64,000 nucleotides of DNA from Gammaproteobacteria bacterium (lineage in GTDB: Bacteria; Pseudomonadota; Gammaproteobacteria; UBA4575). Below are positions 28,437 to 33,760 of the stretch, in pieces. Numbering within the stretch: position 1 is the stretch's first letter; each line of letters opens with the position of its first letter. The stretch covers positions 313,080 through 377,079 of the forward strand of contig CBDCUI010000007.1 in assembly GCA_965222615.1 (NCBI GenBank). Direction: 5' to 3'. The notes beneath the pieces were generated by a model. That model was not told the DNA's origin. It saw nothing but the letters and a program-made list of their open reading frames with translations, and ran no database searches. Position numbers and translations under genes: made by a program.

Positions 28437-29633
28437 TCAACCTTTCACGCAAACTACTTGTCTCAATGTATGTTCAACACTTACCAAGTCATTTTGGTTT
28501 TCCATAACCACGTCAATATCTTTGTATGCGCCAGGGATTTCATCTAATACACCTTTGTCTTTACGACATTCAACACCCGCAGTTTGCGCCTCGATATCTT
28601 CTTCATTGAAATGGCGTTTTGCTTTACCACGACTCATACGACGACCTGCGCCGTGCGAACATGAACTAAATGATTCAGGGTTACCTTTACCACGAACAAT
28701 ATAAGATTTAGCACCCATACTTCCTGGAATAATTCCAAGCTCATCCACGCCAGCACGGATCGCTCCTTTTCGCGTAATGTAAACATTTTCACCAAAGTGA
28801 TTTTCCATAGACACATAATTGTGATGACAATTGATGGCTTCTTTAGTGATGCCAAATTTTGGTAAAACTTTTTTTAACGCATCAATGATTAAGCGCATCA
28901 TTTCTTTACGATTTTCCATTGCGTAATCTTGAGCCCAGTTCACTGCATTTACGTAATCATCAAAGTGCTCAGCACCTTCAGTGAAATACGCTAAATCTTT
29001 ATCAGGTAAATTATGAATATGCTTTTGCATATCTTGTTGTGCTAATCGAATAAAGTATTGACCAATAATATTCCCTACTCCACGGCTACCCGAATGAAGC
29101 ATAATCCATACATCATTATTTTCATCCAAACAGATTTCAATAAAATGATTCCCCCCTCCAAGTGTGCCCAATTGGCGCACCCAAGTTTGATAAGGCTTTT
29201 TCTGCATCTTTAAAAGTTTAGGATGTTTATCTAGTAAGCGATCTAAACCGTCAGATAAAGGTCGTATAGTAGAATTCTTAGCTTTATCAGTCTTGTGCAT
29301 ATCAAAACCAACAGGAATTGCGTCTTCAATTGCAGTACGCACTTTACGTAAATTATCTGGAAGATCATCTGCATTGATTGAAAGGCGTAACGCATTCATG
29401 CCACAACCGATGTCTACACCAACTGCAGCTGGAATGATTGCACCTTTACACGGAATTACAGAACCCACAGTCGCACCTTTACCAAAGTGTACATCCGGCA
29501 TCGCCGCTATATGACTATGGATAAAGGGCAACTGTGAAAGGTTGCATAGTTGTTGGTAGGCTTCGTGCTCAATGTCATCTGTATAGATTTTTACGCGCAC
29601 TTTACCTTTGGTAATCACTTTCTTTATTGGCAT
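28437..29633 (-). CDS. rtcB: RNA-splicing ligase RtcB (3'-phosphate/5'-hydroxyl RNA ligase)
   Basis: Near-colinear match to RtcB landmarks: MPDVHFGKGATVGSVIP, AVGVDIGCGMNA, GNHFIE, HNY and CSHGAGR. Confidence 0.9.
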   Translation of the reverse strand: MPIKKVITKGKVRVKIYTDDIEHEAYQQLCNLSQLPFIHSHIAAMPDVHFGKGATVGSVIPCKGAIIPAAVGVDIGCGMNALRLSINADDLPDNLRKVRTAIEDAIPVGFDMHKTDKAKNSTIRPLSDGLDRLLDKHPKLLKMQKKPYQTWVRQLGTLGGGNHFIEICLDENNDVWIMLHSGSRGVGNIIGQYFIRLAQQDMQKHIHNLPDKDLAYFTEGAEHFDDYVNAVNWAQDYAMENRKEMMRLIIDALKKVLPKFGITKEAINCHHNYVSMENHFGENVYITRKGAIRAGVDELGIIPGSMGAKSYIVRGKGNPESFSSCSHGAGRRMSRGKAKRHFNEEDIEAQTAGVECRKDKGVLDEIPGAYKDIDVVMENQNDLVSVEHTLRQVVCVKG

Positions 29634-29670
29634 ATGTCACCCAAATCAGTCCCTATAATATTCATTTCTA

Positions 29671-29847
29671 TTAGAACCATCGTGTCGCTTGTTCTTCAAG
29701 CAACAATTCTTGAAATCTACGCCCTGATCCACATACACACAGATCATTACGGCCGAGCTTCTCGATAAGTTCTTTATTGCCATGAACGACTCTATTTCCT
29801 CGTTTAACGTTTGTTTCTGATGGATATCCCTTGCGACGTTTACTCAT
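29671..29847 (-). CDS. Small SEC-C motif protein (58 aa) immediately upstream of rtcB. Not in the ORF track because it is under 60 aa.
   Basis: Hand translation of the reverse strand gives [58 protein letters not shown]. NDLCxCGSGxxFKxCC is the SecA/YchJ-type zinc ribbon. Confidence 0.5.
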
Positions 29848-29909
29848 ACGCTCAAAAGGATTGGTCCTTATCTTTAAATTTACACATGTTGCACCTCCGT
29901 TTTATTGAG

Positions 29910-31352
29910 CTAAACATAACTCACTATATTTAAGTTTTCTTTCAATGCCCAGCGTTGAAATATATCTTTCTCAGAATCAGTTGGTAAGCGATTATACTTT
30001 CCTCTTGCTTGGCAAATTTGTTTGTTATACATATTTACTTCTATCGTTAACATCTTTGTGATTCCAATCTTATTCTGTAGATCCATGGTGTAAATTGCAC
30101 TTTTCCCCTTGTGGCAAGAATTTGCATAACTTGCAACACAATGACCTTGCTTACGACCTTCAGCAACAAGTTCCTTACTAGATAGTAGCTCTCTTATTGT
30201 CCAAACTTTCATATTTCTATTCTTGCTATTCCCTTCAACGTACCTAAAATCATTAATACCAGACTTTTTCCATTGCAAGTTTCCACCACGGGATTCTCTA
30301 CCGAGTTGTTGATGCCACTGCTCAACTTGTCTTAATAATGTTTCAGCTGTTCTACCTCGCATGGAAAAATTAGGTTGTGCAGGTCCGATTTCTCTAGCCA
30401 CGCCTCGCTCAACAAACTCAACTCTATTTTCATATTTTTGATTCCAAATATAATCCACAATTGGGTTTACATGGCTCAAATCCAACATTGGGTTTTCGAT
30501 AAAAAACTGTATAACTCTTTGCCAAAATTCTTCATCTTTAAATCTTGTATTCAGTCGCGTTCCATTAATTGCATTGGCAATTGCAACATTTCCACCTAAT
30601 GCTTTCACTTGTGCCCAACGAAATGCTCCTAACACACTATATGAAGTAGGCGCCTGTATAAAATGATGGGCCATTTTCTTAGTCAGTCTAATAGGTAAAG
30701 AATGAGCCGTTCTAATATTGTGTCCTTTACCTATATGCATGAACCATTTTTGCTGTTTTTTGTTTCCCTGTAACCAAACATAATCCATAAATTCTGGTAC
30801 ATAATAATTCGCGAACAAGTGTCTAGCTAACGATGAAAACTGGCGAACTGCATTATATGTAGAAGGCTCCCATACATATAAATCACGTAACCACTTGGTT
30901 CGATATAATGTGAAATTTATAATCCCTCGCACAAAATCTACCGAACTAAAAAGCTTTGTTCTTTCCTCCAGGTATAGCAAGGCTTTTAATAGCTGTTTTT
31001 TCTCTTTTGATATACGAAACCCTTCGTATACAATTTGTAGAACTTTACTATTAATTTCATTTAGAGGTAGTTTATTATCAAAAATTAATTCAATCTGATA
31101 TCTTATCTTCCCCTCTTTACTATGCTTCTTAAGCTTTTCTTCCGCTAATATTTCTTTATATTTCTCTATCTCCTTATAACGTTGAGAATATTTCTTATCT
31201 AGTTTTGAACTGAAACCATTCGCTTTACACCATTTTTTATATTCGGCTATGTCTTTCAAATTTAGGGCACGAGCATGCATCAAGACCTCTAACTCTAAGT
31301 CCTGATCAATCGTTTTCAATTTTTTATTTTTTCGTGCCATATCAATATTCAA
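29910..31352 (-). CDS. Hypothetical protein, possibly PcfJ-like
   Basis: Lys/Glu-rich N-terminal coiled coil. C-terminal ...KQGHCVASYANSC... resembles the HCV-containing core of PcfJ-like proteins from memory only. Confidence 0.3.
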   Translation of the reverse strand: MNIDMARKNKKLKTIDQDLELEVLMHARALNLKDIAEYKKWCKANGFSSKLDKKYSQRYKEIEKYKEILAEEKLKKHSKEGKIRYQIELIFDNKLPLNEINSKVLQIVYEGFRISKEKKQLLKALLYLEERTKLFSSVDFVRGIINFTLYRTKWLRDLYVWEPSTYNAVRQFSSLARHLFANYYVPEFMDYVWLQGNKKQQKWFMHIGKGHNIRTAHSLPIRLTKKMAHHFIQAPTSYSVLGAFRWAQVKALGGNVAIANAINGTRLNTRFKDEEFWQRVIQFFIENPMLDLSHVNPIVDYIWNQKYENRVEFVERGVAREIGPAQPNFSMRGRTAETLLRQVEQWHQQLGRESRGGNLQWKKSGINDFRYVEGNSKNRNMKVWTIRELLSSKELVAEGRKQGHCVASYANSCHKGKSAIYTMDLQNKIGITKMLTIEVNMYNKQICQARGKYNRLPTDSEKDIFQRWALKENLNIVSYV

Positions 31353-32614: not shown

Positions 32615-32897
32615 ATATAAATTGCGGGTAAACTCCTGTTGTAGTAACGGGTCTACAAACTTTCACATATCATTGCGATACCCCAACTATCGCTTTGAAT
32701 ATGTTTCAGTCTCTAGACTGGTTATCACAAGCTTGTGATTACTCAGGCAATCTACATGTTGCGACATAAACAAACTCTCAACCGTAGTTGAGCTATTTGA
32801 AATGTCACGGGAACATTTCCCTAGTTAGTGTTTTCACACAAAATGCGGAATCGAACCGCAGGCTTTCGCCATTACCAATGAACAACGTTTAAAGTTG

Positions 32898-32969
32898 TCG
32901 AAAGAACAGGAATCGAACCTGCAACATTTCCGTTATCAGCGGAATGCTCTCCCTTTGAGCTATCTTTCA
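32898..32969 (-). tRNA. tRNA-Ile(GAT), no encoded CCA
   Basis: Hand-folded cloverleaf: D stem GCTC/GAGC, anticodon stem TTCCG/CGGAA with loop CTGATAA, T arm GCAGG-TTCGATT-CCTGT. Confidence 0.6.
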
Positions 32970-33193
32970 CTGGTGTATCGGACCACTTACAACTTTGTAT
33001 ACACATTGCAATCACCTTTCGGTTTAGCTTCGGTGCACAGGTCTGAATTCAAGAATCAGATCCGCTAAGTAAATAAATGTCTCTCAATACTCATGAACTC
33101 AATGTTTATAAAACATCGAATTACAATTCTTTAAATACAGGTGACCTGCCCCATTGCAGGCCACCATTTTTCACGTCCCCTTTCTACTAAAAT

Positions 33194-33760
33194 TTAACGT
33201 CGCTCTTTAGGACATTGTGTTTTCAAGAACGCCATTTGGTCTGCCAAAATTTTGCGGTTAGATAAAATCAATCCTTCTGCATAATTTGGCTCATATGGAA
33301 TTCCTAATAATGAAATTCCTATTCTTTCTGCCTCACTAGGCATTAAACTATCTTTACGTGCATTACATGCACGGCATGCTGTAACCACATTCATCCATGT
33401 GTTTTTTCCACCACGTGATAGTGGAATCACATGATCGCGCGTTAAGCGATTTCGAGAATATTGATCACCGCAATACATGCACATGTAATCATCACGTCGA
33501 AACAATCTTGCATTTGTAAGTGCAGGCACTTCACGAATGTGGTCGTCTGATCGCATCACACCATGTGTTGCAACAATACTGTTCACATCAATAAATGAAC
33601 GAGTTCTTGTTCTGCGATTTACACCACCATGAATACGGAAAGAATTTGAACCCATTTCGTAAACAACTTGTTCTCGTGCATACACTAATGCTGCATATTC
33701 CCAGTTCATCCATTCAACTGGACGCCCAGCTACGTCTAAACGCAAAATTAAATTTTCCAT
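33194..33760 (-). CDS. HNH endonuclease embedded in the tRNA array
   Basis: CMYCG...DHVIPLSRGGKNTWMNVVTACRACNARK (HNH with zinc-finger cysteines). Confidence 0.8.
   Translation of the reverse strand: MENLILRLDVAGRPVEWMNWEYAALVYAREQVVYEMGSNSFRIHGGVNRRTRTRSFIDVNSIVATHGVMRSDDHIREVPALTNARLFRRDDYMCMYCGDQYSRNRLTRDHVIPLSRGGKNTWMNVVTACRACNARKDSLMPSEAERIGISLLGIPYEPNYAEGLILSNRKILADQMAFLKTQCPKERR

Follow-up and report, generated by a model that had tools for sequence, protein, structure and literature searches.

Why should the gene for an RNA ligase stand beside a long array of tRNA genes in a bacterial chromosome? The question is raised by a 64,000-nucleotide stretch of DNA from a gammaproteobacterium of the UBA4575 lineage (contig CBDCUI010000007.1, positions 313,080 to 377,079; below, the window, G+C ~38%). 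A sequence-only reading had described positions 28437-33760 of this window as a possible tRNA repair and replacement module directed against anticodon nucleases. The genes it named, rtcB and those for a SEC-C protein, a PcfJ-like protein, a slipin and an HNH endonuclease, are present at the coordinates given for them, all on the minus strand. Its remark that rtcB has no rtcA or rtcR partner also held, as no such domain was found among the window open reading frames (ORFs) tested. The tRNA array does adjoin the HNH gene, but the interval described ends at the HNH gene, and the array, which runs on to 37207, contains a GOLLD RNA that had been missed. Every feature from 28437 to 38342 lies on the minus strand, and together they form one ~10-kb block. 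Along transcription it runs from a helix-turn-helix (HTH) gene through a promoter, a structured leader, the array with its GOLLD RNA, the HNH gene, a lone tRNA-like gene without encoded CCA, and the SPFH (slipin-type), PcfJ-like and SEC-C genes to rtcB. We assign these identities with high confidence. On balance we lean to the view that the block is a horizontally movable union of two elements: an L-array, one of the long, horizontally spread tRNA arrays found in many phyla, including all classes of Proteobacteria (Santamaria-Gomez et al., PMC8421152), and an RNA-repair cassette centred on RtcB. The parts of the block are as follows.

37689-38342, minus strand: HTH protein, 217 aa, first gene of the block (Pfam HTH_3, E 0.008, under the family cut-off)
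37611-37638, minus strand: sigma-70-like promoter, TTGACA-16-TAGACT, the top minus-strand match within 28200-38600 (10 of 12 positions)
37208-37615, minus strand: structured leader, 408 nt, from the promoter to the first tRNA
37294-37325, minus strand: 5' arm of an inverted repeat, 32 nt
33868-37207, minus strand: tRNA array, 24 genes called by ARAGORN plus one 97-nt Ile(UAU)-like gene above the Rfam threshold
36402-36774, minus strand: probable 5' domain of the GOLLD RNA (374 nt aligned with L178, L005 and L008)
35914-36401, minus strand: GOLLD RNA (RF02032; Rfam 155.8 bits against a gathering score of 150, E 1e-41, model positions 1-416, full)
33781-33812, minus strand: 3' arm of the inverted repeat, 56 nt past the last tRNA and 21 nt before the HNH start codon
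33194-33760, minus strand: HNH endonuclease, 188 aa (Pfam HNH_5, E 1.7e-16), starting 107 nt after the last array tRNA
32897-32969, minus strand: lone tRNA-like gene, tRNA-Ile with anticodon GAU and no encoded CCA (Rfam tRNA, 64.5 bits), upstream of the SPFH gene
31427-32575, minus strand: SPFH/Band_7 protein of the slipin type, 382 aa (Pfam PF01145 Band_7, E 4e-26; longest ORF to 32614)
29910-31352, minus strand: PcfJ-like protein, 476-480 aa (Pfam PF14284, E 8e-13), in the slot between SPFH and SEC-C
29646-29847, minus strand: SEC-C zinc-knuckle gene in two frames (frame-0 ORF 29671-29847, 58 aa; predicted fused product 66 aa)
28437-29633, minus strand: RtcB RNA ligase (3'-phosphate/5'-hydroxyl), 398 aa (Pfam RtcB, E 2e-132), last gene of the block

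The extent of the block became clear when the window was compared with its closest relative, a 1.3-Mb contig (L001; the other loci are numbered in the same way). The two share 92-93% DNA identity only over 38309-31373 and 29897-28441, and their flanks on both sides are unrelated. These limits fall within the HTH gene (38309) and at the end of rtcB (28441). L001 has the same array and an identical HNH protein, and carries a 128-aa ORF where the window has the PcfJ-like gene. In L178 and L179 the HTH gene (66-68%), array, HNH gene (78%), SEC-C gene and rtcB (90-91%) are found beside a VgrG-like gene. Since the surroundings of the block are unrelated between the window, L001 and L178/L179, rtcB is not part of a conserved core synteny that has nothing to do with the array, which was the alternative named against the original proposal. 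The nearest relatives are marine or hydrothermal Gammaproteobacteria metagenome-assembled genomes (MAGs).

The ligase itself falls in a compact clade from Gammaproteobacteria MAGs, with >120 clusters that are 77-91% identical and almost without exception 398 aa long. Its motifs VDIGCG, GGGNHF, HSGSRG, HHN and CSHGAGR align to those of PH1602 and TTHA1785, two RtcBs of solved structure; the Asp/Cys, Asn-His, His, His-Asn and GMP-attachment His motifs are all kept, and by these motifs the active site is intact. Seven contigs drawn from this clade in a survey anchored on RtcB showed the following arrangements.

L178: HTH, 18 tRNAs with GOLLD, HNH, SEC-C, RtcB
L179: order as in L178, with a transposase inserted in the array
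L180: 20 tRNAs, HNH, lone tRNA, SPFH, a 316-aa ORF, RtcB
L176: lone tRNA, SPFH, SEC-C, RtcB, without an array
L175: SEC-C and RtcB only
L177: RtcB alone
L181: RtcB and an RF-1-domain (PrfH-like) gene

In all, 19 loci of the clade were seen; four of them end at contig ends, which leaves 15 informative loci. An array of at least 7 tRNAs was present in 9 of the 15, and an HNH gene in 12 of the 19. A second survey, anchored on the PcfJ-like protein among species-representative genomes, used an alignment as query after a single-protein query had given no match. It returned 10 loci in Gammaproteobacteria MAGs with at least one of SPFH (49-66% identity), SEC-C (77-83%), RtcB (76-85%), HNH (42-56%), sometimes RlaP, and clusters of 7-18 tRNAs, the gene order being the same as in the window. 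In an eleventh locus (L002) SEC-C was the sole partner. The other 69 PcfJ loci, mostly from Poribacteria with other Gammaproteobacteria and a few other phyla, had no tRNA within 10 kb in any case (0/69); distant RtcB (26-31%) occurred in 3 of them and the remaining partners in none. Co-linear cassettes recur in divergent MAGs (L004, L005, L008, L010, L011, L047, L095, L096 and L180). The link of rtcB and SEC-C to tRNA arrays in relatives, which had been set beforehand as the test of the proposal, was thus borne out in many related genomes: it is co-linear, on one strand and extends to an HNH gene. The juxtaposition of repair and array genes goes beyond chance, as the 69 tRNA-free PcfJ loci and the array-free state of 77 of 80 metagenomic HNH loci attest, but it is facultative. 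As judged from these comparisons, the linkage of array, HNH, GOLLD and RtcB cassette is real, conserved, co-linear and frequent, and it is not obligatory.

The cassette half of the block has its own internal structure. The lone tRNA-Ile at 32897-32969 is no member of the array but a separate CCA-less element that goes with the SPFH gene. Eight loci have one tRNA at a distance of 313-557 nt upstream of the SPFH gene, with anticodons GAU, CAU, GAA or UUA; the acceptor stem GAAAGA/UCUUUC is common to six of the eight, and CCA is missing in seven of the eight, as against encoded in all array tRNAs. L176 and L180 add two further cases. This arrangement fits the band-7-associated (b7a) tRNA of Burroughs and Aravind, as far as their account is relayed in 10.1101/312249. 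At this SPFH-adjacent position L047 carries a suppressor-type anticodon, UUA (3487-3559). SPFH homologues (49-79%) adjoin RtcB in L001, L005, L007, L008, L010, L011, L047, L095, L176 and L180. In the window the SPFH gene likely starts at ATG 32575, which is preceded by an AAGGAG ribosome-binding site. The slot between SPFH and SEC-C is variable and is filled by a PcfJ-like, a 128-aa or a 316-aa gene. The "two uncharacterised genes" of the sequence-only reading are therefore both present but are not equivalent: one is the SPFH gene, which with its tRNA-like gene belongs to a predicted RtcB system, and the other, the PcfJ-like gene, occupies the variable slot. We rejected the PcfJ-like gene as an obligate member of the cassette, as it is mostly solitary and is found without the cassette. 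The C-terminal domain of its modelled product is a candidate GNAT-like fold; a Foldseek search of the model against the PDB gave no significant match, and the invariant residues H404, C405 and C413 are atypical for GNAT. RlaP (PF10127) is appended to the cassette in L001 (14302-15392), L005 (~15872-16633) and L008 (~15933-16679), and not in the window; it is an RNA-repair nucleotidyltransferase reported to extend damaged tRNA halves before ligation (PMC12776372). The accessory proteins of the cassette belong to no NCBIfam family. From the loci compared, the minimal core would be lone tRNA, SPFH, SEC-C and RtcB. In L181 (9582-11850) the clade member (85%) lies between an RbfA-like gene and the RF-1-domain gene; by gene content, an almost identical ligase is here paired in another way, of the ribosome-rescue type.

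If linkage is facultative, the array with its HNH gene and the RtcB cassette might be functionally independent and co-occur only as both gather in the same variable hotspots. The components are indeed found apart: RtcB alone (L177), SEC-C with RtcB (L175), the cassette without an array (L176), array with HNH but without RtcB on betaproteobacterial megaplasmids (L082, L084 and L086), HNH alone in 77 of 80 loci and solitary PcfJ-like genes. A defence island and a toxin-antitoxin pair also neighbour the block. Against this, order and strand (array, HNH, lone tRNA, SPFH, variable slot, SEC-C, RtcB) stay constant although the proteins have diverged to 50-80% identity, spacers are short with no mobility genes between the parts, the block moved in one piece between the window and L001, and in Anabaena an equal gene set is co-regulated although dispersed (PMC10272220). 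We consider functional independence unlikely.

The SEC-C gene raises a question of its own, as the 58-aa protein reported at 29671-29847 is there but is incomplete. Its frame-0 ORF matches PF02810 (E 3.7e-5) over profile positions 1-14 of 19 only and is without the last two zinc ligands, which are encoded in the +1 frame. That frame provides FKNCC, completing the motif CxCGSGxxFKxCC, and the predicted junction peptide of the fused product is GSGRRFKNCCLK (...GSGRRFKNCC...). The two frames are laid out as follows.

29847 to 29713, minus strand: frame 0, from the ATG at 29847 to Phe45 (UUU, 29715-29713), with its stop at 29673-29671
29714 to 29646, minus strand: +1 frame, from UUC (29714-29712) through AAG (29711-29709) on to TGA at 29648-29646

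The same split was found in 13 loci from independent assemblies. At the junction all 13 have an Arg codon and UUU, then CAA (7 loci, the window included) or UAA (6 loci), then a purine. Since UUU in the P site is followed by C or U in every case, tRNA-Phe could re-pair from UUU to UUY; the C/U alternation is explained by a synonymous change of Phe codon in the +1 frame. We compared substitutions by codon position in 12 loci, as mean pairwise differences at positions 1, 2 and 3.

Upstream of the site, frame 0: 0.17 / 0.10 / 0.56
Downstream, +1 frame: 0.32 / 0.24 / 0.47
Downstream, phased as frame 0: 0.47 / 0.33 / 0.26

The peak of third-position variability thus switches from frame 0 to +1 at the site. 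Past the junction, all 12 loci have a frame-0 stop within 21 codons, whereas 11 of the 12 remain open in +1. With the 66-aa fused product as query, homologues of 63-68 aa were recovered from other phyla; they are uninterrupted, continuous across the junction, and reach 95-100% coverage at 64-77% identity. This match indicates that the split is a candidate +1 frameshift of the prfB kind.

The two frames could instead belong to a decaying pseudogene or to two separate small ORFs. Gene callers report only the frame-0 ORF of 55-58 aa, most loci have a +1-frame ATG (from AAT-GAT codons) upstream of the junction, and the SEC-C gene of L175 is clearly degenerate. We find this explanation improbable, in view of the junction (UUU, YAA, purine) kept in 13 independent assemblies, the coding-type substitution pattern of each half in its own frame, and the uninterrupted homologues, whose match spans the junction. 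Upstream of it the +1 reading is not conserved, and in L007 it holds a stop. The T-run at the junction, 3-4 nt, is too short for transcriptional slippage.

In prfB, the gene for release factor 2, a programmed +1 frameshift takes place at CUU-UGA-C. The SEC-C site resembles it in that the P-site tRNA would re-pair one base downstream, the A site holds a stop in 6 of 13 loci, and the shifted frame encodes the conserved remainder of the protein. It differs in having a sense codon, CAA, in the A site in 7 of 13 loci, in lying in a 66-aa zinc-knuckle gene with no known autoregulatory logic, and in that prfB has an upstream Shine-Dalgarno-like stimulator, none being established for the SEC-C site. 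In the literature searched we found no account of a SEC-C frameshift. The candidate shift appears new, and we infer the slip itself from its comparative signature. The +1 stop of the window is separated by 12 nt from the rtcB ATG (29633) that follows and shares its frame; for the frame-0 stop the distance is 37 nt. We tentatively put forward that the programmed shift (UUU-YAA) could act as a sensor of decoding stress with a coupled rise in rtcB translation, a possibility that we would not count as probable. When release factor or tRNA-Gln(UUG) became limiting, for instance after tRNA cleavage, more ribosomes would slip and yield the full zinc-knuckle protein; shifted ribosomes would end 12 nt before the rtcB start codon and might raise its translation; and damage itself would then switch on RNA repair and possibly also use of the neighbouring tRNA array. 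tRNA-Gln(UUG) is always present in the arrays beside the cassette. To our knowledge, confirmed programmed +1 frameshifts in bacteria are few. If true, the SEC-C case would be a notable addition to them and would suggest a regulation of RNA repair that does without RtcR.

The array packs 25 CCA-encoding tRNA genes into 3.3 kb of a single strand, with gaps mostly of 1-20 nt and CCA encoded by 25 of 25. Confident calls cover 19 amino acids, with Met only via a non-canonical candidate. Apart from the ordinary calls, the array holds these genes and candidates.

34271-34367, minus strand: Ile(UAU)-like tRNA gene, 97 nt, with a long extra arm; passes the Rfam threshold and ends in CCA
~34786-34862, minus strand: Met(CAU)-like candidate with a short D-arm, from RNAfold and inspection; ends in CCA
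35216-35302, minus strand: Ser(UGA)-like candidate with an odd T-loop, from RNAfold and inspection; ends in CCA
35476-35593, minus strand: 3' tRNA fragment, from folding and inspection; ends in CCA

The 97-nt gene has counterparts in L005, L010, L120, L178 and L179, and arrays related to that of the window and L001 occur in L010, L178, L179 and L180. In the array tRNA-Phe the anticodon loop is UUGAAGC, as against CUGAAAA in the chromosomal tRNA-Phe, with G37 and C38 for A37 and A38; this change, seen in one comparison, could alter modification or nuclease recognition. A suppressor-type tRNA with anticodon CUA lies within the L011 array (L011 1372-1456). A ~60-nt repeat occurs three times in the array region of the window (33834-33894, 34057-34117 and 35702-35762), each time directly after a tRNA 3' end; its copies hold paired hairpins, GCGAGTGG.TATTACTCGC followed by AATTAATAA and another small hairpin, and might signal processing or termination or represent a miniature repeat element. 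In a 467-kb viral contig (L088) a PcfJ-like gene lies within a 26-tRNA array, which also has two sub-threshold Rfam matches, one to RNase P-like RNA (7656-7859; archaeal model, 54.8 bits against a gathering score of 84, E 1.5e-12) and one tmRNA-like (8771-8846).

The GOLLD match clears the gathering score by a narrow margin, and four relatives score 143.8-155 bits at the equal array position (L001 153.5, L005 154, L178 155 and, under the threshold, L008 143.8). It lies between tRNA-Ala and tRNA-Asp, and tRNA-Leu(UAG) (36256-36332) is embedded in its variable linker; the embedded tRNA changes between loci (Leu-UAG, Ile-UAU, Arg-CCU, Trp-CCA). An alignment of the region 5' of the match (4 sequences in 2 effective groups) gave 79 predicted pairs, 35 of them changed on both sides, with a covariation term of -17.7. 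From these four sequences in two groups we estimate that the RNA probably spans ~860 nt in total (35914-36774). GOLLD is known from HNH-bearing tRNA arrays of Mycobacterium (PMC6582537), and assembles as a 14-mer cage (PMC12286853). The window shares with the Mycobacterium and phage cases a match above the Rfam gathering threshold, a tRNA in the linker, a large horizontally acquired array with HNH, and the rare tRNA-Ile(UAU) (PMC6582537, PMC12286853). It differs from them in its host, a gammaproteobacterium with no prophage evident, in an embedded tRNA that varies between loci, and in the direct link of the array to an RtcB cassette, no such link being mentioned for mycobacteria in the literature compared.

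Transcription of the array would begin at the promoter listed above, which is a consensus match only, promoter-like sites overall being not enriched relative to shuffled sequences. The leader that follows folds strongly (minimum free energy -136 kcal/mol, z -4.17; 0 of 100 shuffles fold equally well) and has no match in Rfam. It contains a strong terminator-like hairpin (~37372-37330; AAAACCCCGG...CCGGGGTTTTTT) and a long one with a U-run directly before tRNA-Thr; the former may attenuate transcription into the array, or the leader may be a separate small RNA. The HTH protein is a candidate local regulator of the block. NCBIfam and PADLOC assign it to no family, homologues hold the equal position before the array in L001 (92%), L178 (66%) and L179 (68%), and in L176 and L180 more distant ones (27-29%) are encoded on the other strand. 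The 10-mer AATTTCATAT is common to the promoter spacer (37620-37630) and the region upstream of the HTH gene (~38426-38435), and was the sole shared 10-mer in a search for operator motifs; with ~0.05-0.1 chance occurrences by rough estimate, it is a weak hint of a shared operator.

The inverted repeat encloses exactly the tRNA array and leaves the HNH gene outside. Its arms are 91% complementary over 32 nt with a perfect 24-nt core, where 0 matches are expected by chance. Equivalent arms that co-vary are present in L001, L010, L179 and L180, and the copy in L178 is degraded; 15 columns changed on both sides with pairing kept. Because the pairs are nearly all Watson-Crick and the duplex energy (-43 kcal/mol) is equal for the sense and antisense strands, a long-range RNA processing stem, as in rRNA operons, and terminal inverted repeats of DNA are indistinguishable here. 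A search of L120, L088 and L082-L086 found neither the bracketing repeat nor GOLLD. By these comparisons the repeat appears to be new, and it suggests either that entire tRNA arrays undergo processing as rRNA precursors do, or that they move as cassettes bounded by inverted repeats.

To the left of the block the chromosome is ordinary, with genes for polysaccharide synthesis, a Cus-type efflux system, an M23 peptidase, an AraC regulator and acetoacetate decarboxylase. To its right a HigBA-like pair (38520-39171), consisting of a HigB-like (Gp49, PF05973) toxin and a HigA-like (HTH) antitoxin, and two small regulators precede an island at tRNA-Phe. HigB-type toxins are ribosome-dependent mRNA nucleases. 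The island, 14.7 kb long and 1.9 kb from the block, is inserted at tRNA-Phe (54968-55043) with a perfect 46-nt direct repeat at 40253-40298, and from its genes it looks like a defence island.

53839-54882: tyrosine integrase
52751-53320: NYN/HEC-09 protein
50477-51343: second integrase
46381-49818: MkoA-like helicase with an RNase H-like domain
40456-45924: Hhe helicase-nuclease, 1822 aa

We rejected this integrase island as the carrier of the block, since its 46-nt repeats bound only 40253-54968. A 27-nt repeat (core GTATGAGTCCACGGTTCA) occurs three times in the window, just outside the HTH gene (38449-38475), abutting the far repeat of the island (40206-40232) and beside the second integrase (50003-50029); 0.03 occurrences are expected by chance. 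It is not in L001, and could mark a secondary attachment site or be the scar that tandem insertions left. The block itself has no mobility gene except HNH, and its DNA gave only a 58-nt tRNA-like match against plasmids. Full-length relatives of the HNH protein adjoin arrays of 27-38 tRNAs on megaplasmids of Methylibium, Burkholderia and Variovorax (L082, L084 and L086), another relative sits amid 20 tRNAs in Salicola phage SCTP-2, and a further one occurs in the jumbo phage Ralstonia RsoM2USA; in the megaplasmid and SCTP-2 loci neither GOLLD nor RtcB was found. In a metagenome scan anchored on HNH (80 loci, 44-53% identity), tRNAs lay directly upstream in 3 and RtcB in 2. We therefore rejected HNH as a specific hallmark of arrays, 77 of the 80 metagenomic relatives being arrayless in housekeeping contexts.

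That a phage or other mobile element left the block as a remnant or carried it as cargo, and is served by its tRNAs, GOLLD and HNH, with RtcB a chance neighbour of the insertion point, is the least likely explanation in our view: phages and prophages typically have tRNA islands and GOLLD (PMC12286853, PMC6582537), and the jumbo-phage HNH relatives, the viral array with a PcfJ-like gene and the nearby integrase-bounded island point the same way, but neither the block nor its immediate flanks hold a phage structural, replication or integrase gene, the block DNA has no match among 50,697 phage records, the 46-nt repeats of the island exclude it, and RtcB and SEC-C accompany the array into differing contexts, which is not the behaviour of an accidental neighbour. 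Location in phages or prophages is a tendency of the GOLLD family and not a requirement.

Both elements of the block have published counterparts. The first shows the features of an L-array, with many close, non-periodic tRNAs on one strand, a patchy distribution in differing contexts and a linked HNH gene. L-arrays are accompanied by a conserved HNH gene, and rtcB adjoins the array in several cyanobacteria, where the trn operon, HNH and rtcB are co-induced by translation inhibitors; the authors proposed that cleaved tRNAs are mended by RtcB and that those from the array either replenish the pool or serve as sponges (PMC8421152). The regulon of the Anabaena repressor TrcR comprises the trn operon, rtcB, HNH genes, a hypothetical-plus-slipin pair and GNAT genes (Xing et al., PMC10272220). 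Like the trn operon of PCC 7120, the array of the window has more than 20 same-strand, tightly spaced, non-periodic tRNAs, a patchy distribution pointing to horizontal transfer and an adjacent HNH gene (PMC8421152); rtcB lies nearby in several of the species, the co-regulated set there includes a slipin gene, GNAT genes and an HNH gene, and the hypothesis of repair plus extra tRNAs is the same (PMC8421152, PMC10272220). Unlike in PCC 7120, the parts are physically contiguous here, in a gammaproteobacterial chromosome, the HNH gene is downstream and not upstream of the array, GOLLD is embedded in the array, and the candidate regulator is an HTH protein and not the RHH repressor TrcR. The second element has the marks of the RNA-repair system of RtcB, Band-7 and b7a-tRNA that Burroughs and Aravind predicted, as cited in 10.1101/312249: an RtcB with intact catalytic residues, an SPFH gene in the cluster and an authentic-looking tRNA gene beside it, with L176 as the arrayless core. 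To the system as outlined in that citation, the loci described here add SEC-C as a near-constant partner, the variable slot, and frequent fusion with an array, HNH and GOLLD, some of which the original description may hold. With the rtcBA operon of E. coli and Salmonella, with its sigma-54 activator RtcR (PMC7790460), the block shares the RtcB ligase with intact active site and the presumed repair of damaged tRNA or rRNA; it has no rtcA, rtcR or Rsr/Y RNA, and its partners are SPFH, the tRNA-like gene and SEC-C.

Taken with these precedents, a movable union of L-array and RtcB cassette would work as follows. An array of 25 CCA-encoding tRNAs for at least 19 amino acids, with the ~860-nt GOLLD inside it and HNH at its 3' end, would be read from one promoter through the structured leader; the second element would comprise the CCA-less tRNA-like gene, SPFH/Band-7, SEC-C and RtcB, with the PcfJ-like gene in the variable slot. 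When tRNA or rRNA is cut by ribotoxins, or translation is impaired, RtcB would reseal breaks with 2',3'-cyclic-phosphate and 5'-OH ends and the array would supply a divergent pool of spare tRNAs. SEC-C protein would be made only after the +1 slip of tRNA-Phe from UUU to UUY at UUU-CAA or UUU-UAA, which would tie its production, and possibly translation of rtcB, to slow decoding. "Repair plus resupply" is, by analogy with cyanobacteria, for which it is already published, the best available reading.

Several observations weigh against it. The RtcB-clade gene is without an array in 6 of the 15 informative loci (L003, L006, L175, L176, L177 and L181), PcfJ-like genes are mostly solitary, and the 77 array-free HNH loci are set by housekeeping genes (HU, acyl-CoA dehydrogenase, DXS). 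PADLOC recognises no known defence family among the cassette proteins. The divergence of the spare tRNAs has been gauged by a single comparison with a housekeeping gene, in which the array tRNA-Phe (36943-37019) is 64% identical to the chromosomal one at 54968-55043. At the SEC-C site of the window the A-site codon is CAA and not a stop, and coupling of the shift to rtcB translation is conjecture. In cyanobacteria the trigger demonstrated was translational stress caused by antibiotics that act on the ribosome, and not nucleases (PMC8421152, PMC10272220). Anabaena could restore translation without the array, and the array tRNAs were themselves cleaved (PMC8421152), so that resupply is not established even there.

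Long tRNA arrays and GOLLD RNAs are widespread, and their roles are poorly understood. The locus is a new gammaproteobacterial form of known systems, and two of its features, the candidate SEC-C frameshift and the bracketing repeat, appear to be new. Loci of this kind unite an array, GOLLD and a predicted RtcB/Band-7/tRNA-like repair system in one compact, transferable 10-kb unit, and they could give direct access to the questions of whether "repair plus resupply" takes place and whether GOLLD has a part in it.

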